A stretch of DNA of 64,000 nt from Thermodesulfobacteriota bacterium. Lineage in GTDB: Bacteria; Desulfobacterota_D; UBA1144; Nemesobacterales; UBA2774. Positions 39,198-52,746 of the stretch are shown here, piece after piece; the first letter of the stretch is position 1; each line of letters opens with the position of its first letter. The translations under genes and the position numbers were made by a program. The notes beneath the pieces were generated by a model. That model did no database searches and was not told the DNA's origin. It was given only the letters and a program-made list of their open reading frames with translations. The stretch lies in assembly GCA_965223335.1 (NCBI GenBank), contig OZ244991.1:320001-384000 (forward strand), written 5' to 3'.

Positions 39198-39716
39198 CTA
39201 TTTGGGCTTGTTCACAACCTTATAGTCCTCAATGAACAGGTCAACAAGCTCGCCCAAGGCCTTGCCCACACACTCGTTTAAAACCTCGGGGCTACAGGAA
39301 AACAGCTTGCCCACACTCCACGTAGAGCCCGTGGTGGATATACTCTCGCCCAGTTTTGTCCCCATTATTACTATGGCCCGGTTAAGGTCTATATCTATGT
39401 ACACAGCGTAGTAATTCTCAGACTCCGATTTACTCGCAATCACCTTTATGTACAGGTAAGAACCCCCAAATACATTAAACCACTTCCTCTCCTCGAGCAC
39501 ATTAATATCGGCGTCGCGCAGTCTGTTTTCGACAAATTGCCTTAGCCCCTCTTTGCTAAGCCCGTCTGCAGAGGCTGAGTCAGAGATCTCTTCCAGTATC
39601 ACCGCGGTTCCCGTAACCCCCCTAAGCGTAGCACTGCTCGGGAGTGGGTATGCCAGCTTCGCACACAGACCAAAAACAAACAAGCTCATCAGTAGCATTG
39701 AGAACAGTTTTATCAT
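39198..39716 (-). CDS. Exported hypothetical protein
   Basis: Signal peptide; alpha/beta pattern; no recognised motif. Confidence 0.7.
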   Translation of the reverse strand: MIKLFSMLLMSLFVFGLCAKLAYPLPSSATLRGVTGTAVILEEISDSASADGLSKEGLRQFVENRLRDADINVLEERKWFNVFGGSYLYIKVIASKSESENYYAVYIDIDLNRAIVIMGTKLGESISTTGSTWSVGKLFSCSPEVLNECVGKALGELVDLFIEDYKVVNKPK

Positions 39717-39853: not shown

Positions 39854-42800
39854 TTACTTCTTTCGCGAGAAATCATGGAGTAGGTTTAGGTTTGTGGTTA
39901 CGAGGTCGTGTACATCGGGAAAATCCTTTTTCGTAAAAACCTTAAGCGCCTCGTTATAAGCCTCGATCGCTTTTTCGCAATTCCCAGCCTTGTTTTGAAT
40001 CTCTGCAAGTGTGGTATATGCCCCACCTATGTTGTTTTGGGTAGTCGCGTACTGCATGGGGTATTGCTCTATTGTGTAGATAATAAGTGCTGTTTCGTAG
40101 GCCTTAATCGCTTTTTTACAGTTCCTAGCCTTATCCTCCGATTCGGCCAAGGTCCTATAAACCACACCTAAGTTGTTCTGTGTACCCGCAAATTGAATCG
40201 GAAACTGTTGAATGGAGCGCACCTTGAGTGCTTCCTCGTATGATTTTATGGCCTTTTTGCAGTTTGCAGTCTTCTCCTCTACATCGGCAAGGGTCCTAAA
40301 TGCTGTGCCCAGGTTGTTTTGTGTCGAGCCGTACTGTACCGGGTATTCATCCTTGTTATACACCCTAAGTGATTCGTTATAGGCTTTTATAGCCCTTTTA
40401 CAGTTCTTGCCCTTATCCAGGGCTTCGGCAAGGGTCCTGTAAATGACCCCAATGTTGTTCTGCGTGGCAGCATACTCAACCGGGTATTCGTTTACGGTGT
40501 AGAATTTGAGTGTTTGTTCATAAGCCTTTATGGACCTCTTGCAATTGTTCTCGGTATCCTCATACTCAGCAAGGCTCTTATAGAGTGCTCCAAGGTAATC
40601 CTGAATAGTAGCATACTCGTCTGGGTAACTCTGGAGGCTGTAATAATTTGTGCATAACTCATATGCCTCACACGCTTTTTTACAGTTTGCTATTCGGTCC
40701 TCCCATTCTGCAAGCGCCCTGTATATATGGCCTATGTTCCTGTTAATAAGCCCGTAGTCTGCGAGCGAGGTCTCGGGGGTATAGACCTTCAATGCGTCTG
40801 TGTACTCAGAGATGGCATTATGATAGTTCTCTTTTACCTGCTCGCCGTTCTCGGCAAGTTTACCGTATGCTATTCCGGTATATTTTTTTATCTCTCCATA
40901 CTCCAGCGGGTTCGTGCTTCTTTTATAAATTTTAAGCGACTCACGATACGCATTCGTGGCCCTGATATAGTTGGCAATCTCTCCCTCGACTTCTGCAATA
41001 ATGCTCGAGGCAAGCCCCACATTCTTTTGCACGGCACCGTATTCTGCGGGGAATTTATCAGGATCGAAAACTTGGAGCGTCAGCATATAAGAGGTCACAG
41101 CCTCTTTATAATGTGTGATCTCTCCCTCAATCTCAGCAAGTGTGATTAAGATGTCGCCAATATTTTTTTGAATTACACCGAACACAAACGGCGATTTGCC
41201 GACTGAGTAAATCTTTAGCGATTCGGTGTAGCAATCGATCGCCTTTCTCATTTTCTTAATGTCGCTATCGGTCTTGGAATACATATGATACGTATAGCCC
41301 AGGTTACGATATACCAACCCGTACTGTGTAGGGTAGTCGGCTCTATTATAGACCTTTAACGACTCCTCATAGGATTTGATCGATTTCCTAAAAGCATTGG
41401 GTTTGGCCCCTTCCTCTGCGATCTTTCGGTATGAATTTGCAATCTTATAATGTGCGTCTGCAAATTCTTCGGGCGAGGTCTCAACATCGAGTGATTTGAG
41501 CGCATTTTCGTGGAACTGAATAGCTTCTTTGGGATCCGCAAACTCCTCTGACTCCGCTTGATCGGGCATCTCGGCACTATCGCGCACAGCCTGTTCGGTT
41601 GTTTTCTCTACTGTAATGGTCTTTGTGTCTGAAGCAGCTTTTTTCCTCCTCCGCTCTTTTACCTCTTTTAATTCCACAACTTCTGCAATCTCTTCTTTTT
41701 TTGTTTCCGTTTCTTTTTTGTCGGGTGAAGGGATTTTTGCGGCACGTAAAGATGCTACGGCTTCTTTGGCTTTGTTGTAGACCGACTCGGCATCGTTGTG
41801 CAAATCAGGGCTGTCCTTTTTGTTATAAACCAATAGCGCCTGCCGAGAGGCCTTGAGTACATTGTTGTAGAGTGTCGGGCTTTGATCGAGTTCGGCTAAT
41901 TGAAGGTAGAGGTTTGAGAGTTTGTACTGCACAAATCCATAATCTTCAGGTGAGTTATCTAATGTATAGAATTCCAGTGCTTGCTCGTAGGAACTGATGG
42001 CTTTTTGAATATTATTTTTGGAACTCTCTGTTTTCAGGAGCTCAGTATAGGCAGTGCCTAGGTTCTTATGGGCACACGCAAACTCCTCTGGGCTATCCTC
42101 GAGGTTATATCTCTCGGCGGCTTTCTCATAGAATACTATATCATTGCCTTCCTCAGACAACACATTTTCCAAGACAATAGGTTCTTCCTCATTCTTGACT
42201 TCTTCTGCACGTAACTGCTCGAGGACCTCGTTTGAGTTCGTTATCCACTCGCGAACTTTTGCCAGTGTATCCTTGTCGGTAATTACTTTTTCCGCTTCCT
42301 CAAATGCATCGAGAGCCTTGGTGTGGTTCTCCTCCTTTTTATCCTCATCCGTGATTGAGCAGAGTGCTATCCCCAGCATAAGTTTTGTCAGTGCATACTC
42401 TTGTTCATCCTTTTGGTCCTTATAGTGCTTGAGTGCCGAGTTATAGTACTCAACGGCCTCATTGTACTTGGAGTGATCTTTATCGCTTGAGGCCTGTGCG
42501 CTGTAGGCATCGCCAAGGCGCTTTGAGATCGATGCGAACCTAAGCGGCATAACTTTTGGGTCTAGTAGTTCCAGTGTTTCTTTTAAAATAGCGAGCTCTT
42601 TATCCGGGTCTTTATGGGCCGTTTCAGAGATTAATACGAATCTTTCTATGATTTGATCATAAAGCTCAGGGGCATGTTTCTCTAGATTGTGGGTGTTGTA
42701 AGCACCAAGTGCATCACGCACATGGCCAAGAGCTGCCTCGTTATCGTTTGAGTCCTGCGAGCTTTCGGAAAGTCCTAAATAAGCCACTGTGAGCTTTTTA

Positions 42801-45800
42801 GATACCGAGTCGTAGGGCTCGGGCTCTTTGTCATGGTCTAGGTTTTGAAGCACGCTATTGTAATATTCCACGGCCTCGATCAGGTTCGAAGACCTGTCCT
42901 TGCTATCGGTATGATTTACGAGTGTATCGGCTAATCTAAGCTCTAGCCCCCCATAAATCTTAGCCATTGTGCTTTTATCACAAAGAGTTAAAAGTACTTT
43001 ATAGATCCCGATCTCTTTAACCCTGTCTTTGTGCTCAACTGAAGAAATCGCATCGCTAAAATCACTTAGATCTTGATCAATCCCCATTTTTTCGGGATCT
43101 AGCCCGGCTGATGCAAATGCTTGATATGCATTGTTAAAGGCTTTAACAGAGTTTATTAAATCCTTGGGCTCACCCTTCTGCTTAGCACAAAGTGCATGTG
43201 CCCGCCCAAGCCTACTTTGAGTAAGACCAAAATCCCCGGGGTTGTGGTCTTCCGTAACATACCCGCTAACGCTTTCGAGATACCTAACGGCATCGGCAGC
43301 TTTGTTGTCTCTCAGACACTGCTCTGCCACACGCATATGCAGGTTTCCCAGATTCGTTTTGATACTATCAATATCATCAGCAGCTTCGGCTTCGAGAACC
43401 TTATTGTAGTATCCAACAGCACTCGTAAAGTTGTCGTGTTCACCACTCGTTTCGAATAACTCTTTTTGAATATCCCCTAGTCGCGTGCAAAGTGCGCTAT
43501 GCTCAACCGCCATCTGAGACTCATCCGTAATCTCGAGCACACTCTCCAAGAGATCAGTTGAATGCTCTCCTGCTTCTATCTCTTTCTCTAAAACGGTTTT
43601 AACAAGACTCTTTATGCCTTCGATTACCTCTTGATATTTCTCTGGCTCGTTTTCTTCACTGTACACACTTAGTGAATTCTTATACGCTTCAATTTCGTTT
43701 GTTATGTAATCGGATTTAGTATTTAGCTCATTTAGCAACCCGTAACTATGAGCGATCTGTTTTTGTATCTGGGCGTACTGCTCGGGGTATTTTTCCTGTG
43801 TATAGAGGTTTAGTGCCTCGCCTAATGCATCGATACCCCCGGTTAATTTGTCTATATCCTTTGCGGACTCCCCTTCCGATAACAACAGTTCCCCTATTAT
43901 TTTCGTTATCTCTGCATAGTCCTCGGGGTGATCACTCGAATTATAGAACTCGAGTGCGTCCCGATACCTTGATACTGCTGAGTCTAGGGACTCATCCCGA
44001 CCGAGTTGGGCAGCAGCTTCAACATAAAGATCCCCCACCACACGGTTCACATTTCCCAGCGTTTGCTCTTTGGTGTCTTTAGCCTTGGCTGCGGTGGCTG
44101 CCTCATAGAACTGAATGGCACTTAGGTAATCATCTTTATTCCCTGACTCCCTGGCAAGATCGGTGTATAGGGAACCGAGCTTGATTTGCACCGATTCCAG
44201 GTTCTCGCACATAGCATCCACATCAAATTTTTCCAAGATCTGTTTGTAAAGCAAAACCAGATCATCACTCTCAAGTTCAAGCCCGTTTAACAATTCCACT
44301 ACCCGTTTTAGTGCAAACGAGATATTCTCCAATCCAACTTCATTTTTATCCGCCTCATATGCCACAAGCGCACCGTGGTATGCGTTTAGCGCGTCTGATA
44401 TGTGGCTCTTATCCTTAGTTCCTTTGGCTTGGTTGGAGTAAGAGTCCCCAAGGGCCTCTTGAATAGATGCGTAGTTGTCCGGGTGATTGTCTCTATCAAA
44501 TATCTCAAGGGCCCTAACAAGATACTCCCTGCCCTGTTCGTATGCATCTTTTTCGACATGGCTTATCCCCGCTTCCAGCAAGGCGTTGCCGAGGCTCTTC
44601 TGAGACTCAGTATGCTCTGCACTATCCAAATCCTTAGCACTTAAATCCCGCGCCTTTTCATAATGCTCCACAGCCCGCTCACTGTTACTCGCGAACTCCT
44701 CTTGTCGTGATAGCGTAATATAGGCGTTGCCCATCCGCAGATGAATACCGGCATGCTCTAGGGGTTGATCACTATCAGCGTAATAATCGAGGCAGTCCGT
44801 AAAATTCTCGAGCGCTAATTTATATCTTTCTACATCATTTTCCTTCTCGGCAATTAATGCATAGATAGAGCCGATCTCTTTTTTAAGCAGTGCATATTCA
44901 TCAGGATAATCGTCCTTTCCGTAAACTTTAAGGGCTTCCTCGTAGGCCTCTATGGCCATTGTACTGTTTTCCACTAAGCCCTTCTCGTCCTCAAACAATC
45001 GGTACACGTCACCCAGCTTCTTTAGCGTTGCCGCATACTCAACCGGGGAGTGCTCAATATCGTAGCTCTTTAGTGCTTTTTCATAGAAGCTAATCGCTTG
45101 GTAGGGATCGCTTAACTCTGTTTCCCCAACCAGTTCATAGCTCTTAGCCAAGAGTTTCTGCAATTCCATGTGCCCTGCGGGGTATTTATCTTCGGTAAAC
45201 ACACCTAGTGATTCCTCAAGATACTGGGCAACTTGAGTGAGATTAACATCTTGCTCTCGATCCTCATACAATTCCAGATACGCATAACCTAAACCCATAT
45301 TGATAAACCCATAATTAAGAGGCGAGGCATCTTTATCGCATTGCTCCAAAGCGGCTTTTAGCTCTGATATTGCCGCCTCATAGCTATGAGTCTTATGTTC
45401 GTGCTCAGCTATGGATAGATAAGCAATGCCAAGATTCTGCTTTAGCTGCATCCGTGTTGCTTTCAGAGTGTCCTTGGGTTGGGAGCTATCTAACTCTTTA
45501 TACAGATTAAGAGCTTCTTTGTAACCCTCGGACTCTTGAGTGCACCAAGCACGCATCAGATGCGTAGAAGCAATATCCATTTCAATCGAACTCTGTTTAG
45601 ACTCCGCAGCGACCTCGGAATAGATCTCTTTTGCATCACTGAGTGCAGTCAAAGAGGTTTTGAAACCCTCCTCTGACGAACACTCTGTTGCAGCGCTTCG
45701 TGTATCGAGCCCGATATTTCTATTTAATAACGCTTCTCGGTACCTATATCCCTCGGCACTGTAAACATCCAAAGAAGATTTGTAGTAATCCAGAGACTTA

Positions 45801-48800
45801 TTAATCCCCTCACTCTCATGGCCGTCTGATAATGATGAGTTCACTACACCGAGGCTATTTTGCGCCCGGGCCCGATCAAGCTCGAACCCCTTATCCTCGT
45901 ATATATCGAGACTCTGTTCCAGCATCCCATGTGCTTCCTCGAGATGTTCGGTAGAACTCTCGAGCACAGATAAACCATGTTTTGAGATTGCGAGGTTTGA
46001 CAAAATGTCGGCTCTCAGCAATTCGTCGTTACCGCTTTTCACGCTGTTTAGTGCTTGGCTAAGCAGTTGATCAGCCAACTGTGTATCCTTAGAGGACGCT
46101 TCTATGGACGATAGGAAATTATGAGCTGCACCCAAATTACTCTTTACCGTAGCGCACTTACGTGGATAGCCCTCTATCTCGGGAGTATCTAGAACTTCGT
46201 TTAGAATCTCTATGGACTTTTTACAGTTTTTTACACTGTCCTCGCAATCGGCCAGTGTTAGGTATGCGGCACCCAGGTTATTACGAATCTTTAGATGGTT
46301 AATCACACTATCACCAGAGTCATACTCCCTAAGGGCCCTCTCGTAGGCCTGAATGGCCTTTCTACTGTTCTTTGCCCTATCCGTTTTTTCGGCCAATGAC
46401 CTGTAGATATTGCCCAGATTGTTTAGTATCAGAGCCGAGTATTTTTCGTTGCCCTCTCCATCCAATACTCTAAGAGCATCCTCATATGAGGCCTCGGCCA
46501 TATCTATTGACTTGGTCTCTTTAGAGATTCTTGCAATGTATGAGTAATTTAGGCCCAGTTTGCACTTAAGCTCCCCGTAATCCTCGGGAAAATCGCTCTC
46601 GGTAGAGATCTCGAGCGCGGATAAATAGTAGTCAATCGATTTCTCAAACTGCTCCAAATCCAGTTTGTATATACCCAGATTTCTATAGATATCGCCTAAA
46701 TTACTGCAGATCATTGCGTATTGGAGAGGATAATCACCAAAAGTATAAAATTTGAGAGCGTTCTCATAGCATTCAATAGCGTCATCAAAATTCCCAGATT
46801 CGCTTTGAGCACGGTAAAGCTTTTGTAAAGCAAGGCCCATGTTGAATTGGATCATGCCAAATTTATCAGGGTAGTCCTCCGAGACATAAACCCTAATTGC
46901 CTCTTTATATGAATCTATAGCTTTACTCGAGTTGTGGGCCTCATCCTCAACATCCGCAAGTGTGCTGTATGCAACACCCAGATTGTTATGGGTCATTGCA
47001 TAATCCAATGGTGCCTCCTCTATGTTCCTTATCTTAAGGGATTCTTCATAAGCCTTAATAGCCCTCTTTGAGTTCTCCGCAGCACCGTGTAGTTCGGCAA
47101 GCGTGCTGTAAGCGTTGCCCAAATTGTTGTAGGTAGTCGAGTATTCTTGGGGATATTTGCCAAGGGTATATATCTCTAAAGCCTCACGATAACACCCAAT
47201 GGCCTTAGTGCAATTAGCGCTATCGTTCTCAATCTGAGCCAGCATGTCATATGCGGCACCCATATTATTTAGGAGAGATGCATATTCAGCGGTCGATTTA
47301 TTTTTCTTATAGTAGTTGTATGCAGTGGTATATGATTTGATAGCGTCCACACAATTTGCACCCTCACCCTCATACTCGGCTAAAGTCCTGTAGGCATCGC
47401 CAAGCAGTTTTGACACAAATGCGTACTGCTCTTTATTTTTAAGAGCCTTGTACTGATGCATCGCCTTTTTGTAGGAATCGATTGCTTGCGAGATGTTACT
47501 TGCAATGGGTCCGTTGTGTTCAAGCAAGAGGTAAATATCACCTAAGGTTCTTAGTAGCCCTGCACTCTCTTCTTTTTCATCCAAAGCATTAAAAACATCT
47601 AAAGCGCTGTTTAGCACCTCGATTGACTCTATTAGCTGATTCTCTCCCCCGGTGTCTTGTTCACGCGAGAGTTTAAACTGTGCAATCCCCAAGTCTCTGG
47701 TTATGGTTGCAAAATCCAATGGATAGTTGTCTTTGTTAAAATAAGTTAGAGCATCACTAAAGTCTTCAAGTGCAGTCTTTGCGTAATCATTATTTGGTTC
47801 CGCCTCTACAAGTGAGATGTGCACATTGCCTTTATTTCTTTTGATGTCTGCGCATTCGTACGGATTATTACCGGTGATATAAAACTCCAGAGCACTATCG
47901 TATGCCGCGAGCGCATTGTTGTAGTTCTCAACCGGGTTCTCTGCCAACGCCAGCGTTGTAAACGATAGGGCTAGGTTTTGGTTTATTATTGCGTTTATCA
48001 TAGGGTCTAAGTCACTGGACAATGCGGATTTGTAGTAAGTAATAGCTTTTTTACAGTTCCTAGTTCTATTGCGGTCAAAGCCTTGTATGGTGTGAGCAAG
48101 ACCCAAATTGTTATTTATATGAGTGTGAATTGCGGGGAATTGTTCTTTTGTAAAATAGCCTAGTGCATTCTCGTAATGCTCAATTGCAATATCACAGTTT
48201 TCACTCCTGGAACTATACGCAGCCAAAAGCACATAGAGATCAGCAATATTGCGTCTCGTATTAGACACTACGTCCTCGGCGTGGTCTTCGTTCTCTATAA
48301 TTCTCGTGAGCAGCCCTAATGCTTTACGATACAATTTAATTCTTTGCTCGGCACTACAGTCTTCTTCTTTCGCAAGTTCTCTATAGAGATAGCCCAAAAA
48401 ACTGTTTATTTGCCAAGGCATATCGCTTTTAATTCTGCTCTCTATGCCCTTTAGCCTTTTTACTATCTTATCCAGCTGATCTACGTTAAAACCTTTTTCA
48501 TCAAAGTAGATCTCGGACAGTTCGAATGCCAAGTCGCTGGATTGATTGGTCTTATTCTTGTTTATATTCTTAACCGTTGATAAAGCGTCAACCAGATAGA
48601 CCTCGATGGTATGGCGTATATATTTAGGCAAATAATGGGATATACGCTCGTATGGGCTACCCTGTTCGCTTGATCTAAGGTCGCTATCGACAGTGATTGT
48701 TGGGAAGCTGTCGGTCTGGGTTAAGTTAGAGATAAAGGTTTTTGTTAAACCGGTATCATCACTTTGTTGCGTATGCGATTCGTCTGAGCTAAGAGCCGTT

Positions 48801-49132
48801 TTTTCATCCTGAATAGTAAGTACGGATGTGTTGTTGCCCCTAAGAAAACCGTACTCATATAAAAGTGCCGGGCTATAACCGTCTAGCACCAAAATCCCCA
48901 AAGCCGTGTCGGTCGCAAGTTTTTCAAACCGCTCCCTAAATTGACTGGGGCTAGTATTTTTTTCGGTTATGGATTCAACCTTAAACCCATACGACGACAG
49001 GACATCTCTAAGAGGGTTTACAATTTCATTTACATACTCTACGTCGCTATGGTCGGGGTGTACGATAAGGCAGGGAATCTCGCCTTGAGTAATCAGCTTG
49101 TTTATTGCATTTAGACTTCGGTTCGCTTTCAT
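39854..49132 (-). CDS. Giant (3092 aa) tetratricopeptide-repeat protein with N-terminal TIR/nucleoside-deoxyribosyltransferase-like domain
   Basis: Dozens of ~47-aa repeats YAxTQNNLGxAYxxLA...NCKKAIxAYEEALKVYT...YP; N-term CLIVHP...LRDVLSSYGF...LGILVLDGYSPALLYEYGFLRGNNTSVLTI; no signal peptide. Confidence 0.9.
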   Translation of the reverse strand: MKANRSLNAINKLITQGEIPCLIVHPDHSDVEYVNEIVNPLRDVLSSYGFKVESITEKNTSPSQFRERFEKLATDTALGILVLDGYSPALLYEYGFLRGNNTSVLTIQDEKTALSSDESHTQQSDDTGLTKTFISNLTQTDSFPTITVDSDLRSSEQGSPYERISHYLPKYIRHTIEVYLVDALSTVKNINKNKTNQSSDLAFELSEIYFDEKGFNVDQLDKIVKRLKGIESRIKSDMPWQINSFLGYLYRELAKEEDCSAEQRIKLYRKALGLLTRIIENEDHAEDVVSNTRRNIADLYVLLAAYSSRSENCDIAIEHYENALGYFTKEQFPAIHTHINNNLGLAHTIQGFDRNRTRNCKKAITYYKSALSSDLDPMINAIINQNLALSFTTLALAENPVENYNNALAAYDSALEFYITGNNPYECADIKRNKGNVHISLVEAEPNNDYAKTALEDFSDALTYFNKDNYPLDFATITRDLGIAQFKLSREQDTGGENQLIESIEVLNSALDVFNALDEKEESAGLLRTLGDIYLLLEHNGPIASNISQAIDSYKKAMHQYKALKNKEQYAFVSKLLGDAYRTLAEYEGEGANCVDAIKSYTTAYNYYKKNKSTAEYASLLNNMGAAYDMLAQIENDSANCTKAIGCYREALEIYTLGKYPQEYSTTYNNLGNAYSTLAELHGAAENSKRAIKAYEESLKIRNIEEAPLDYAMTHNNLGVAYSTLADVEDEAHNSSKAIDSYKEAIRVYVSEDYPDKFGMIQFNMGLALQKLYRAQSESGNFDDAIECYENALKFYTFGDYPLQYAMICSNLGDIYRNLGIYKLDLEQFEKSIDYYLSALEISTESDFPEDYGELKCKLGLNYSYIARISKETKSIDMAEASYEDALRVLDGEGNEKYSALILNNLGNIYRSLAEKTDRAKNSRKAIQAYERALREYDSGDSVINHLKIRNNLGAAYLTLADCEDSVKNCKKSIEILNEVLDTPEIEGYPRKCATVKSNLGAAHNFLSSIEASSKDTQLADQLLSQALNSVKSGNDELLRADILSNLAISKHGLSVLESSTEHLEEAHGMLEQSLDIYEDKGFELDRARAQNSLGVVNSSLSDGHESEGINKSLDYYKSSLDVYSAEGYRYREALLNRNIGLDTRSAATECSSEEGFKTSLTALSDAKEIYSEVAAESKQSSIEMDIASTHLMRAWCTQESEGYKEALNLYKELDSSQPKDTLKATRMQLKQNLGIAYLSIAEHEHKTHSYEAAISELKAALEQCDKDASPLNYGFINMGLGYAYLELYEDREQDVNLTQVAQYLEESLGVFTEDKYPAGHMELQKLLAKSYELVGETELSDPYQAISFYEKALKSYDIEHSPVEYAATLKKLGDVYRLFEDEKGLVENSTMAIEAYEEALKVYGKDDYPDEYALLKKEIGSIYALIAEKENDVERYKLALENFTDCLDYYADSDQPLEHAGIHLRMGNAYITLSRQEEFASNSERAVEHYEKARDLSAKDLDSAEHTESQKSLGNALLEAGISHVEKDAYEQGREYLVRALEIFDRDNHPDNYASIQEALGDSYSNQAKGTKDKSHISDALNAYHGALVAYEADKNEVGLENISFALKRVVELLNGLELESDDLVLLYKQILEKFDVDAMCENLESVQIKLGSLYTDLARESGNKDDYLSAIQFYEAATAAKAKDTKEQTLGNVNRVVGDLYVEAAAQLGRDESLDSAVSRYRDALEFYNSSDHPEDYAEITKIIGELLLSEGESAKDIDKLTGGIDALGEALNLYTQEKYPEQYAQIQKQIAHSYGLLNELNTKSDYITNEIEAYKNSLSVYSEENEPEKYQEVIEGIKSLVKTVLEKEIEAGEHSTDLLESVLEITDESQMAVEHSALCTRLGDIQKELFETSGEHDNFTSAVGYYNKVLEAEAADDIDSIKTNLGNLHMRVAEQCLRDNKAADAVRYLESVSGYVTEDHNPGDFGLTQSRLGRAHALCAKQKGEPKDLINSVKAFNNAYQAFASAGLDPEKMGIDQDLSDFSDAISSVEHKDRVKEIGIYKVLLTLCDKSTMAKIYGGLELRLADTLVNHTDSKDRSSNLIEAVEYYNSVLQNLDHDKEPEPYDSVSKKLTVAYLGLSESSQDSNDNEAALGHVRDALGAYNTHNLEKHAPELYDQIIERFVLISETAHKDPDKELAILKETLELLDPKVMPLRFASISKRLGDAYSAQASSDKDHSKYNEAVEYYNSALKHYKDQKDEQEYALTKLMLGIALCSITDEDKKEENHTKALDAFEEAEKVITDKDTLAKVREWITNSNEVLEQLRAEEVKNEEEPIVLENVLSEEGNDIVFYEKAAERYNLEDSPEEFACAHKNLGTAYTELLKTESSKNNIQKAISSYEQALEFYTLDNSPEDYGFVQYKLSNLYLQLAELDQSPTLYNNVLKASRQALLVYNKKDSPDLHNDAESVYNKAKEAVASLRAAKIPSPDKKETETKKEEIAEVVELKEVKERRRKKAASDTKTITVEKTTEQAVRDSAEMPDQAESEEFADPKEAIQFHENALKSLDVETSPEEFADAHYKIANSYRKIAEEGAKPNAFRKSIKSYEESLKVYNRADYPTQYGLVYRNLGYTYHMYSKTDSDIKKMRKAIDCYTESLKIYSVGKSPFVFGVIQKNIGDILITLAEIEGEITHYKEAVTSYMLTLQVFDPDKFPAEYGAVQKNVGLASSIIAEVEGEIANYIRATNAYRESLKIYKRSTNPLEYGEIKKYTGIAYGKLAENGEQVKENYHNAISEYTDALKVYTPETSLADYGLINRNIGHIYRALAEWEDRIANCKKACEAYELCTNYYSLQSYPDEYATIQDYLGALYKSLAEYEDTENNCKRSIKAYEQTLKFYTVNEYPVEYAATQNNIGVIYRTLAEALDKGKNCKRAIKAYNESLRVYNKDEYPVQYGSTQNNLGTAFRTLADVEEKTANCKKAIKSYEEALKVRSIQQFPIQFAGTQNNLGVVYRTLAESEDKARNCKKAIKAYETALIIYTIEQYPMQYATTQNNIGGAYTTLAEIQNKAGNCEKAIEAYNEALKVFTKKDFPDVHDLVTTNLNLLHDFSRKK

Positions 49133-49287
49133 TTATCTGATTATATAGCGCAAAACAATTTCCATTCAACTATTAATTATACACAGGGGGTGGCAATACA
49201 AAATTAAAGAATTACTAATTTTTACAGCTAGTTACACGGCACGAAGAGAACAAATATCAGGGGTAGTTTGGAACATAAAACTACATA

Positions 49288-49320
49288 GAAGCGGGGTTAT
49301 GAGTATCCGAATCCCGCTTC
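49288..49320 (-). terminator. Riboswitch expression-platform hairpin (putative terminator)
   Basis: GAAGCGGG / CCCGCTTC stem overlapping the aptamer 3' P1 strand, followed on minus by UAUGUAGUUUUAU (imperfect U tract). Confidence 0.6.
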
Positions 49321-49415
49321 GGCAACCCAGCCGCCGACTAGTGCTTATCCAAGCACCTTAGGCCTGTGGTTTTGCGTCCCATCTTTTCAGATGGTTTGCC
49401 CCTTCGTTCCGGGAC
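49311..49415 (-). ncRNA. Cyclic di-GMP-I (GEMM-I) riboswitch
   Basis: Minus strand GGGGCAAA-CCAUCU-GAAA-AGAUGG-GACGCAAA-ACCACAGGCCUAAG-GUGCUU/AAGCAC-...GGCGGCUGGGUUGCCGA matches the c-di-GMP-I core (GNRA P2, GACGCAAA junction, CCUAAG receptor). Confidence 0.93.
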
Positions 49416-49434
49416 CACCAACTCCCTTATACAA

Positions 49435-49463
49435 ACCTTATAGCTAGTTTCTATTTGTGTCAA
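49435..49463 (-). promoter_or_regulatory. Sigma-70 promoter driving the riboswitch leader
   Basis: Minus strand TTGACA-N17-TAAGGT, about 20 nt upstream of the aptamer. Confidence 0.7.
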
Positions 49464-49574
49464 TACAACCTACCTGCAACATTAAAAAAACTACCCCCTG
49501 ACCCCGGTCGGTCGGTTGCAATTCCCAGCTGGAAAGATCGGTTTATTCAATACGCACCGAACATTACGATTAAA

Positions 49575-50012
49575 TCAAACACCATCGACTTTTTTAAAGC
49601 ACTTACTACAGAACTCGCTGCCGCTAACAATCTGGTTGCCGCACTCACACGTGCCCATTATTTCAGGTTTGGAAAGGGCTTTTAATCTCCCAAGCGCTTT
49701 TTGGGCATCCTGGTGTACAAGCTCGAGTTCCTCTCTGCATCTGTCGATCTCTTCATATATCTGCTCGATCTCCTTACATTTCTCCATTACACCGTCTTCG
49801 TTTATCTTGCCCTTATACTTGTACATCTTATAGACCAAATTCCCGACGGCCTCGGTACTTGTCCTTCTGCGTTTAGATAGGCTACGTATCCGGTTTTTTA
49901 TTCTTATCACCCCATACGCCTCTTTAGACCTTATATTTACAATCCTCAACCCCCTCCCAATACCTACCTTTATTTTGTCCAGTATCTCATTCGGTTCGTT
50001 TATATCTGTCAT
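49575..50012 (-). CDS. Coiled-coil protein with C-terminal zinc ribbon
   Basis: Helical basic N-term; CECG....GSEFCSKC; SD GAGGA. Confidence 0.8.
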   Translation of the reverse strand: MTDINEPNEILDKIKVGIGRGLRIVNIRSKEAYGVIRIKNRIRSLSKRRRTSTEAVGNLVYKMYKYKGKINEDGVMEKCKEIEQIYEEIDRCREELELVHQDAQKALGRLKALSKPEIMGTCECGNQIVSGSEFCSKCFKKVDGV

Positions 50013-50322: not shown

Positions 50323-52746
50323 ATGTTTATAGAGATAAAACGAATGAGGGAATATAACGCACCGCAGTTTTTTCTATATATAATTGTAGCTGTACTGCTT
50401 GTTTCTGGGTTTGCATACCCAAACCAGGCACTTGCTGATGACGAGTACGAAATCAGTAGACTATTTGCAGCAACTGAGGACCCCGACCCCAAAGTACGCG
50501 CCAAAGCACTCCAGCAGATCTCGAAATTAGACGCCCAAGAGCATATACCCGCGCTCATAGAACTTTTGAACAATAACGATGAAATATATACCATAAACAA
50601 TGTCTTGGGTGCTCTGGGATCAATGGGCAAAGCCTCGGAGGCACAGGTCCCTATAATTGCAAAGTACTTAACACACGAGGATAAACGTACCAGGAGTACC
50701 GCACTACAGGCGCTTGGACAAATAGGCCGACTGAGCAACAAACAAGCCGCCCCGCTTATAGCACTGCTTAAAGACCCCAATGTTGCAATAAGGATGGCCG
50801 CTTCGAGACAGATAGGTTCCAACCCCGATATTTTTAAGCAGCACTTACCCAAGATAGTAAAATTGCTAGGCGACGAGAACCCCGATATAAAAACGGCAGC
50901 ACTAGTTGCATTAGGACAGCTAGGCACCGTATCGTCGGGCTATAAATCCAAGATTGCAAAACTCACACAAGACGAAAACCCCACGGTCCGTTCAAGTGCG
51001 GCTGTGGCACTGGCCGCTATCGGAAACCTTTCTGAGAGCCAGCTCGATACAATTGTACAACTCACCAACGACAAGGAGAGTTCGGTTAAGGTCCAGGCCA
51101 TCAATTCACTTGGGATACTAGGGAAAGAAGCCTCGGCCCAGGCACCAATCGTAATAAGCAACCTTAAGGACAGCAGGAAAAAAGTGCGTTTCGCCGCTAC
51201 CGATGCGTTGGGAAAGATTGCGAAACAAGACCCTGAGGTCACTAAATCCGTTGCTAAACTCCTCACAAACCAAAACTACTCAACCCGAGCATTGGGTCTG
51301 ATAGCACTCAGTGATGTGGGTGAATCGGCAGGGGCTTACGCCGGGGACGTTGCCAAGAACCTTAAGGACCCCAATATGATAGTCCGTACCTCAGCCCTAT
51401 CTGTACTATCCAGTATCGGGGAGCAGGGTTATGAGTACGCGCCCGATGTGGCAGCGCTACTGGAATCAGAAAATACAAACTTGGCAAAAATCGCTTTGAG
51501 CACATTAATAAACATGAAAGGTCCAGCTGGTGATTATGCCTCCAACTACTCAGCCCTCTTAACCACACACGACAAACTGCTCAGACTAAACGCCGCCATT
51601 GCTTTGGCCAGCATAGGGGACAAAGCAATCCCGGAAATCCCCAATATAGTAGAGTTATTGAAAAACCGCGAGATAAAATTTAGAAAAATGGCCTCTTACA
51701 CCTTGGGGCGTATGGGTGAGCACGCTTCTAGTGCTGGGCCAATAATCGCAGAGCTACTCAGCGATCCTAACCCCGTGATTCGCTCCTCGGCACTCGATGC
51801 ACTCGGTAAAATGGGTAAACACGCCACAGATCAAGTCCCGTCCATCACCCCGCTTCTAGACGATCCCGATAGAGACGTTCGAGCCGATGCGGCGCTAGCA
51901 CTAGGTCTCATAGGCTCGCTAACCGATGCACAAATCGACTCCATTGCCAATCTTCTTAATGATAAAGAGAGGGTTGTGCGTGCGAATGCAGCCGAGGCAC
52001 TGGGCAACCTAAACAAGTCGGCATCGGGCCATGCCCAAGAAGTAGCGGCACTGCTTAATGACCCCTACCCCCTTGCCAACACAAATGCCGCAAGGACACT
52101 TGGGAGTATAGGTATTGCCGACCCCGAGATAACAAACGCTCTAGGTCAATTCATTAAATCAAAATCAAACGACTCCGTAACTTACAGAGAAGCGCTCAAC
52201 GCTGCGCTCGAGTCCCTCAGCTCTCTCGGCAACAGTGCAAATGAGCAGTCAAAGATAATTGCATCTGTGCTCTATGACCCTGAAGCGGTCATACACCCTC
52301 AAGCAAGACTCACACTACAAGACATTGCCCCCCTAGACGATGACACAGTGCTCATGATACTGGGACTCACACACAAATACCCCCCGCAAACTGCCGATAT
52401 TAGAGTGCTTGCGTACAAGATTGCAGGTGATGACCCCGACACTCTTATTCTCATCAAATGGCTTGGCAGCAGCAAAAACGAGGCTACCGCAGAACTTGCG
52501 AAAGATGAAAGAATAAAAATCATTGAGGTTCTGTCTGCAAAGCTACCTAATAGTGTAATGACCAAAGAACTAAGAGACGAAACCGCCGCTAGAATCTCGA
52601 GCCTGATTGAAACCGGCACGGCGAAATGGGCAGCCGAGGACATCGAAACAGTAGAGTCCGCAGAAACACTCCTTAGGCAGAACGGATACGTAGAGCTGGC
52701 CGATAAAGCTGCTGTTACAATTGAGAGCGTGACTAAAAACAATTAG
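50323..52746 (+). CDS. Exported HEAT-repeat (PBS lyase-like) protein
   Basis: Signal peptide (..NQALA); many LL.D.N..VR..AA.ALG..G repeats. Confidence 0.9.
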   Translation: MFIEIKRMREYNAPQFFLYIIVAVLLVSGFAYPNQALADDEYEISRLFAATEDPDPKVRAKALQQISKLDAQEHIPALIELLNNNDEIYTINNVLGALGSMGKASEAQVPIIAKYLTHEDKRTRSTALQALGQIGRLSNKQAAPLIALLKDPNVAIRMAASRQIGSNPDIFKQHLPKIVKLLGDENPDIKTAALVALGQLGTVSSGYKSKIAKLTQDENPTVRSSAAVALAAIGNLSESQLDTIVQLTNDKESSVKVQAINSLGILGKEASAQAPIVISNLKDSRKKVRFAATDALGKIAKQDPEVTKSVAKLLTNQNYSTRALGLIALSDVGESAGAYAGDVAKNLKDPNMIVRTSALSVLSSIGEQGYEYAPDVAALLESENTNLAKIALSTLINMKGPAGDYASNYSALLTTHDKLLRLNAAIALASIGDKAIPEIPNIVELLKNREIKFRKMASYTLGRMGEHASSAGPIIAELLSDPNPVIRSSALDALGKMGKHATDQVPSITPLLDDPDRDVRADAALALGLIGSLTDAQIDSIANLLNDKERVVRANAAEALGNLNKSASGHAQEVAALLNDPYPLANTNAARTLGSIGIADPEITNALGQFIKSKSNDSVTYREALNAALESLSSLGNSANEQSKIIASVLYDPEAVIHPQARLTLQDIAPLDDDTVLMILGLTHKYPPQTADIRVLAYKIAGDDPDTLILIKWLGSSKNEATAELAKDERIKIIEVLSAKLPNSVMTKELRDETAARISSLIETGTAKWAAEDIETVESAETLLRQNGYVELADKAAVTIESVTKNN

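Follow-up and report, generated by a model that had tools for sequence, protein, structure and literature searches.

A predicted c-di-GMP-I riboswitch ahead of a giant TIR-like/TPR protein gene, and its recurrence across an order of Thermodesulfobacteriota

The riboswitch locus and its aptamer

The DNA considered here is a stretch of 64,000 nucleotides (nt) from a Thermodesulfobacteriota bacterium (assembly GCA_965223335.1, contig OZ244991.1, positions 320,001 to 384,000; hereafter the window), in which an earlier note, made from the letters alone, had read a riboswitch for cyclic di-GMP (c-di-GMP), of the GEMM-I type, upstream of a gene for a giant tetratricopeptide-repeat (TPR) protein. The locus comprises a promoter, the aptamer, a hairpin that overlaps the helix closing the aptamer (P1), a long leader and the giant gene, flanked by two smaller genes (Table 1). 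The promoter (TTGACA-N17-TAAGGT) was read by eye; a simple promoter scan did not list it, since its -10 hexamer matches at only 3 of 6 positions. All 18 leaders of the aptamer-bearing loci, the window's included, have an exact TTGACA at 47-67 nt ahead of the aptamer, with a TAnnnT equivalent also visible, which agrees with the promoter claimed in the note. The next gene on the same strand is the giant TPR gene, also as described there, its ATG (49132) lying 155 nt beyond the end of the hairpin, with an AT-rich stretch between (GC content of the leader 0.36). No open reading frame (ORF) of 20 or more codons that might encode a leader peptide lies wholly within the 185 nt between aptamer and ATG, and all six ORFs listed around the leader extend into the gene start, the promoter region or the aptamer. 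A search for a terminator of the upstream gene ahead of the riboswitch promoter found that the fold of 49545..49478 was no better than those of shuffled sequences (z -0.13), so read-through from that gene is possible.

Table 1. Features of the riboswitch locus, in positions of the window
Feature	Position	Strand	Remarks
Downstream gene, 172-amino-acid (aa) exported protein	39198..39716	minus	signal-peptide-like N-terminus; two invariant Cys
Giant TPR gene, 3092 aa, uninterrupted frame	39854..49132	minus	N-terminal alpha/beta domain, helical linker, 47-residue TPR-type repeats
N-terminal TIR / nucleoside-deoxyribosyltransferase-like alpha/beta domain (predicted)	48593..49084	minus	residues 17-180; AlphaFold and VIA-align
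Promoter-like TTGAAT-N18-TATAAT	49140..49169	minus	10/12 matches; ends 7 nt before ATG
Second small hairpin GUAGUUU...AAACUAC	49263..49284	minus	
U-rich, interrupted tail UAUGUAGUUUUAUGUU	49272..49287	minus	7 U in first 12 bases; A and G interrupt
Terminator-like hairpin GAAGCGGG...CCCGCUUC	49288..49320	minus	-12.7 kcal/mol alone; in unconstrained minimum-energy folds
Outer P1, 3' strand CGGGAUU	49310..49316	minus	
c-di-GMP-I (GEMM-I) aptamer	49318..49410	minus	RF01051, 72.4 bits, E 2.9e-12, model 1-87 of 87
C, equivalent of position 92	49322	minus	first C of CCGAA; placed by structure line of clan model
A, equivalent of position 47	49373	minus	after GACGC, 27 nt past G20
G, equivalent of Vc2 position 20	49400	minus	first G of GGCAAAC
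Outer P1, 5' strand GGUCCCG	49410..49416	minus	
-10 hexamer TAAGGT, 17-nt spacer	49435..49440	minus	read from sequence; putative transcription start near 49428
-35 hexamer TTGACA of riboswitch promoter	49458..49463	minus	read from sequence
Upstream gene, 145-aa protein	49575..50012	minus	C-terminal zinc-ribbon-like CxCG...CxxC; marks gene order, outside switch

The check that the earlier note had proposed for its aptamer, a scan with the Rfam covariance models, was run over the whole 64 kb window and returned RF01051 as the sole match, at a score far above the gathering score of 35 (Table 1). In the structure line of the model, the invariant GGCAAAC begins with an unpaired G; its next two bases, GC, pair with GC in GACGC, which is itself followed by an unpaired A. 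From the spacings and the structure line, together with the sequence context of the Vc2 aptamer, we take these two unpaired bases to be the equivalents of G20 and A47 of Vc2, and the first C of CCGAA to be C92. According to PMC5888326 and PMC6140456, G20 and A47 of Vc2 show the same 27-nt spacing as A14 and A41 of Gs1761, G20 and C92 each pair with one of the two guanines of the ligand, the backbone of A47 contacts the ligand, and a G20A change makes Vc2 accept cyclic AMP-GMP (cGAMP). The GEMM-Ib riboswitches of Geobacter that sense cGAMP share their fold and Rfam family with the window aptamer but have A at position 20 (PMC6140456), where the window has G. Position 20 was G in all 15 aptamers compared, namely that of the window, the other four of this genome and ten from aligned relatives. 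The argument of the note that G20 and C92 favour c-di-GMP over the A20 type thus stood, and by its sequence the RNA is an ordinary c-di-GMP-I riboswitch with the canonical G20/A47/C92, predicted to bind c-di-GMP.

Compared with the c-di-GMP-I class (RF01051), whose type is Vc2 of Vibrio cholerae, the window RNA shares the full-length model match, the GNRA-capped first hairpin, the second hairpin, the three ligand-contacting bases and the spacing between the first two, a closing P1, and a position in the 5' leader on the strand of the gene. It differs in what surrounds the aptamer: the leader from aptamer to start codon is long, the terminator-like hairpin is followed by an interrupted U-tract, and the target is a giant, probably cytoplasmic TIR-like/TPR protein rather than a motility, adhesion or secreted-protein gene.

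Aptamer and gene across the order

With the first 300 residues of the giant protein as query, relatives at 20-32% identity were found in 12 of 40 related genomes, and a profile of eleven such N-termini was then run over 101 genomes of the same order at E<=1e-8. This gave 25 places in 23 genomes, the window's own included, which are kin and not independent (one further locus, the aptamer-less L017 with an E of 2.6e-5, fell below the threshold and is outside the count). When Rfam was run over the flanks of all 25, an aptamer of the c-di-GMP-I clan was found upstream on the strand of the gene in 18 places, covering families f1, f2 and f3: the window itself (genus g1), 9/9 primary loci of g3, 2/2 of g4, 3/3 of g6, 2/2 of f2 and 1/1 of f3. 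All 18 aptamers carry G20, A47 and C92. All have a leader of 147-257 nt. The leader sequences otherwise differ widely, and candidate P1 helices of differing sequence occur in the relatives (for example AAUCCU/GGGAUU and AUCCU/AGGAU). The proteins differ too: among full-looking frames the homologous genes range from 877 to 3774 codons (1399-1586 in g3 and g4, 2820-2823 in g6, 3092 in the window and 3774 in f2), so that, as judged from these frames, the repeat region is one that has greatly expanded and contracted, whereas the leader and the N-terminal domain have been retained. A pairing kept in 18 of 25 places, over three families and with such different leaders, is hard to explain otherwise and argues strongly that the aptamer would act on the giant gene in cis.

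The name that Rfam gives to most of these relatives needs a comment. Fifteen of the 17 related aptamers (L007-L012, L014, L015, L026, L030, L031, L033, L036, L042 and L043) scored best not against RF01051 but against RF03167, c-di-GMP-I-GGC, a variant of the same clan whose model also covers P1 and whose consensus, GACGCGAA, has G at position 47. The letters GGC would, to judge from that consensus, stand for positions 20, 47 and 92. In the window, as in 17 of 17 relatives, the sequence is GACGCA, hence A47, and none has the G47 by which the RF03167 variant differs. On this comparison the RF03167 label is a scoring artefact, which misclassifies 15 of 15 canonical aptamers at the defining base, and RF03167 probably wins because its model also scores P1. 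The paper on 224 RNAs (PMC5737381) makes no mention of a c-di-GMP-I-GGC variant. As a practical warning, the best-scoring Rfam label is wrong in these relatives at the very base that defines it.

Expression platform and mode of control

The hairpin that the earlier note had seen overlapping the 3' strand of P1 was found as described. Its 5' arm (49320..49313) shares bases with the P1 strand CGGGATT (49316..49310), and so the two structures are mutually exclusive. The duplex of the aptamer flanks, in which GGUCCCG pairs with CGGGAUU and CG with CG beside C92, was computed at -17.0 kcal/mol, and the hairpin arms, GAAGCGGG and CCCGCTTC, form 8 pairs (6 of them G-C) around a 17-nt loop. The unconstrained minimum of 49432..49255, at -63.9 kcal/mol, has the hairpin in and P1 out; with P1 enforced the value is -51.3 kcal/mol, energy from the ligand and from tertiary contacts being excluded. 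In these models, the hairpin form is favoured over P1 when no ligand is present. The 64 nt spanning both hairpins downstream of the aptamer gave a fold z of -3.37, and 2 of 200 shuffled sequences folded equally well.

These features suggest how the switch might work. Without ligand, GAAGCGGG, just 3' of C92, would pair with CCCGCUUC, and the hairpin and its U-rich tail would end or stall transcription. Bound c-di-GMP would stabilise P1, outer strands and CG/CG pairs together, and so remove the 5' arm of the hairpin, and polymerase would then read on into the 9.3-kb gene. The ON polarity of this scheme rests on the mutual exclusion of P1 and the terminator-like hairpin. The reading that we favour, and hold to be reasonably probable, is that a canonical c-di-GMP-I riboswitch with its own sigma-70-type promoter controls the giant gene, and probably that of the small exported protein behind it, in cis as an ON switch by anti-termination.

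Several observations weigh against this reading. The hairpin is followed by UAUGUAGUUUUA, a broken run of U rather than a clean one, and a terminator scan listed nothing on the strand of the gene, although that scan accepts loops of 3-8 and would have missed this hairpin in any case. Of the ON switch in the earlier note, in which P1 excludes a terminator, the competition between hairpin and P1 was borne out, and the intrinsic terminator is a putative one. Seven of the 25 places, five of them f7 loci and the other two second paralogues belonging to g3, showed no aptamer even at E<=1. The expression platform varies between genera, and the alifold consensus of g3 and g4 (11 loci) shows the start-codon element (U)AUGUC paired with a GACAU(G) from just after the aptamer. 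Finally, the window gene has no Shine-Dalgarno-like word in -20..-4 (nor have 4 of the 17 relatives), and in combination with the 10/12 promoter-like site near its ATG this makes a riboswitch-independent, leaderless transcript possible in this genome.

The first of these points would be met if the riboswitch acted without an intrinsic terminator, the hairpin serving only to set P1 and the output depending, in either polarity, on Rho-dependent termination, RNA decay or masking of the start codon. We consider this rather unlikely for the window, where nothing clearly complementary to the start region was found beside the aptamer and where the hairpin, like those of g6, precedes a U-rich stretch (in 3/3 loci of g6 a long hairpin, whose 5' arm includes GGGAUU, is followed by UUUGCGUU, which resembles the window). 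Besides the interrupted U-tract and the lack of a called terminator, it is the relatives that speak for such a mode of action. All 18 loci have a long leader. In 7 of 9 g3 leaders (L009, L010, L014, L015, L026, L030 and L031) the word GUUUGCC, which complements the invariant core of the aptamer (GGCAAAC) exactly, occurs about 100 nt past the aptamer, L012 and L033 carrying GUUUGCA; in g3 leaders, too, the post-aptamer GUCGGGACAUG nearly repeats the ribosome-binding and start region, ACGGGAUAUGUC. These elements are possibly a long-range anti-aptamer or a mask for the start codon in g3, and the GACAU-AUGUC pairing together with GUUUGCC suggests translational or long-range control in g3 and g4. 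By manual reading of the minimum-energy folds of the post-aptamer region, CCGAAG pairs with a downstream CUUC-type element in 14 of 18 leaders, and in only about 5 of these does a U-rich tail follow the pairing. The theme common to the relatives and the window is that alternative structures compete for the bases immediately 3' of C92, with a read-out that may differ by genus.

An independent start of the giant gene was the caveat of the earlier note, and a site of that kind does lie where it had been placed, ending 7 nt before the ATG. Taken further, it would mean that the gene is transcribed mostly leaderless from TTGAAT-N18-TATAAT, while transcription from the riboswitch promoter stops at the hairpin and its product contributes little, or serves as a separate small RNA or a c-di-GMP sponge. 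The match of 10/12 and the missing Shine-Dalgarno-like word fit such a transcript. However, the promoter scan of the region found 3 promoter-like sites against 2.1 +/- 1.4 in shuffles, so the site is not above chance on its own; 15 of the 17 related leaders have no promoter-like pair near the ATG, the two that do (L016 and L013) being both AT-rich and both matching at 9/12; and 13 of 18 leaders have a Shine-Dalgarno-like word. In a leader so AT-rich, the site has probably arisen by chance, and an aptamer kept beside this gene would be hard to account for without control in cis. We therefore think this alternative improbable.

Both polarities exist in the c-di-GMP-I class, and the two leaders of family f2, L016 (G038) and L036 (G054), which are 256-257 nt long with a GC content of 0.22-0.28, include one, L016, in which a run of eight U directly follows the predicted 3' strand of P1, so that P1 itself could be part of a terminator, an OFF design. 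For the window, an OFF switch in which ligand-stabilised P1 lowers expression is very improbable, because P1 cannot form there together with the terminator-like hairpin, which points to ON, and no U-run follows P1 itself.

The giant protein, its neighbours and its place in c-di-GMP control

The protein of 3092 residues is, as the earlier note had it, a TPR protein: TPR_12 matched at 202.9 bits (cut-off 30.1) and TPR_10 at 73.2 bits (cut-off 27.5), SNAP-like profiles also match, and the repeat period of 47 residues was visible as a self-identity of 0.20 at lag 47 and 0.16 at lag 94. A simple pattern scan printed no long hydrophobic stretch in the protein and no signal peptide was seen at its N-terminus, which suggests that it is probably cytoplasmic.

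The N-terminal domain matched no Pfam or NCBIfam family above cut-off. An AlphaFold model of residues 1-270 (pLDDT 71.6, pTM 0.70) showed a five-stranded alpha/beta fold (17-150) followed by helices. When it was compared by VIA-align with 48,161 representative chains, MilB (4ohr, Z 12.2) and the TIR domain of RPS4 (4c6t, Z 11.8) were matched. Deoxyribosyltransferases and many other TIR domains scored Z 9-11, and the 50 matches listed include at least 12 further TIR entries. Flavodoxin-like and receiver domains scored slightly lower (flavodoxin-like chains up to Z 10.8), and because they come so close the comparison supports a fold class and nothing narrower. A Foldseek search of the PDB was less informative, with only generic matches of the flavodoxin-like kind (TM-score at most 0.39 when normalised to the query and 0.62 when normalised to the target), and a protein atlas offered TPR-S and CAP12-PCTIR_TIR clusters (scores 0.84-0.89) as leads only. 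On the model, the domain is TIR/deoxyribosyltransferase-like by fold class. No TIR-type Pfam family was found at E<=1 in the 11 family members scanned. In a small alignment of eleven N-termini, Y92, G95 and G99 are invariant and E70, in another helix, nearly so, and no conserved glutamate stands out at the place expected of a TIR domain. With an alignment of this size and so distant a relationship, the domain may even so be a true member of the TIR family. Residues 17-180 thus resemble TIR and deoxyribosyltransferase-like proteins (MilB, RPS4 TIR, SARM1, ThsB, AbTir) in fold, but the giant protein differs from them in having neither a Pfam or NCBIfam match to the domain nor a conspicuous conserved glutamate.

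The family is rare: out of 1.84 billion, 133 cluster representatives match at E<=0.001, a number that falls to 81 at 1e-10 and to 23 at 1e-30. A word-index protein search with the N-terminal 250 residues gave nothing at E<=0.001, and a single-protein search of the genome contigs found no relative.

Gene order was compared in the riboswitch-bearing genomes G005, G012 and G022 (f1) and G038 (f2), and in G047 (f7); a short contig of G014 gave no neighbouring ORFs that could be used. An exported protein of about 175 residues is encoded directly downstream of the giant gene in 4/4 of the riboswitch-bearing relatives (32-49% identity, gap of 30-137 nt). In the window the gap is 137 nt and holds no terminator-like site on the strand of the gene. 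A conserved gene on the same strand, with no such site before it, suggests that the unit under the switch probably includes the exported protein; the 172-aa gene would then be co-transcribed with the giant gene and add an envelope component to the operon, one that the earlier note did not mention. Neither this protein nor the 145-aa protein encoded upstream matched a Pfam or NCBIfam family above cut-off. The latter has an invariant N-terminal RxxNIRSKEAY. The window copy and those of 3 out of 4 relatives aligned with it have the zinc-ribbon-like end, the copy in G038 stopping short. A homologue of 120-150 residues lies upstream on the same strand in the relatives, though none was found beside the gene in G012, and the order continues with hisS on the other strand and then a GT4 glycosyltransferase. 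Among named records the HisRS comes closest to Nitrospirota MAGs, at 52-53% identity only, which is a weak pointer to its affiliation. The f7 locus of G047, which has no riboswitch, keeps the upstream gene of the 145-aa type and not the downstream genes. Divergent from the locus in the window (50323-52746, plus strand) is a gene for an 807-aa HEAT-repeat protein (HEAT_2, 224.9 bits), a second large solenoid in the neighbourhood.

The genome as a whole has five c-di-GMP-I aptamers (69.9-78.2 bits) and three GGDEF proteins. The other four aptamers precede genes for a CBM96/beta-helix protein, a fusion of PilZ with an aminotransferase, a 161-aa protein without Pfam hit and an SLT/SPOR lytic transglycosylase. 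Beside these, the giant cytoplasmic solenoid is the odd one out, in line with the remark of the note that it is an unusual target. The fusion is worth recording in its own right: the aptamer at C1:1416597-1416686 (L002; minus strand, 75.4 bits) precedes a gene for a 935-aa protein with an N-terminal PilZ domain (48.8 bits) and a class I/II aminotransferase domain (123.1 bits), that is, a c-di-GMP riboswitch stands before a fusion of c-di-GMP receptor and enzyme. An A20 type had been considered for this aptamer and was rejected, since the 27-nt spacing to A47 and the structure line give G at position 20.

The riboswitch class is known; what is new is the conserved target family. A search of the literature, in a limited collection and at the level of result listings, found no link of a c-di-GMP riboswitch to a TPR protein. 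The size of the proteins (877 to 3774 residues) and their probable cytoplasmic location do not fit the usual targets in motility, adhesion and secretion, and the order-wide link to c-di-GMP is the first functional handle on a rare, unannotated family. The 18 natural leaders also offer a set in which different expression platforms are joined to one aptamer and one gene. More tentatively, and as a proposal that we regard as possible rather than likely, the giant protein and its exported partner may constitute an undescribed c-di-GMP output module, vertically inherited in at least three families, in which a cytoplasmic scaffold would organise an envelope or sessility function and the N-terminal domain would be a nucleotide-binding or nucleotide-processing head and more than a relative in fold. 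If this were true, a rise in c-di-GMP would turn on the scaffold, which is several thousand residues in length.

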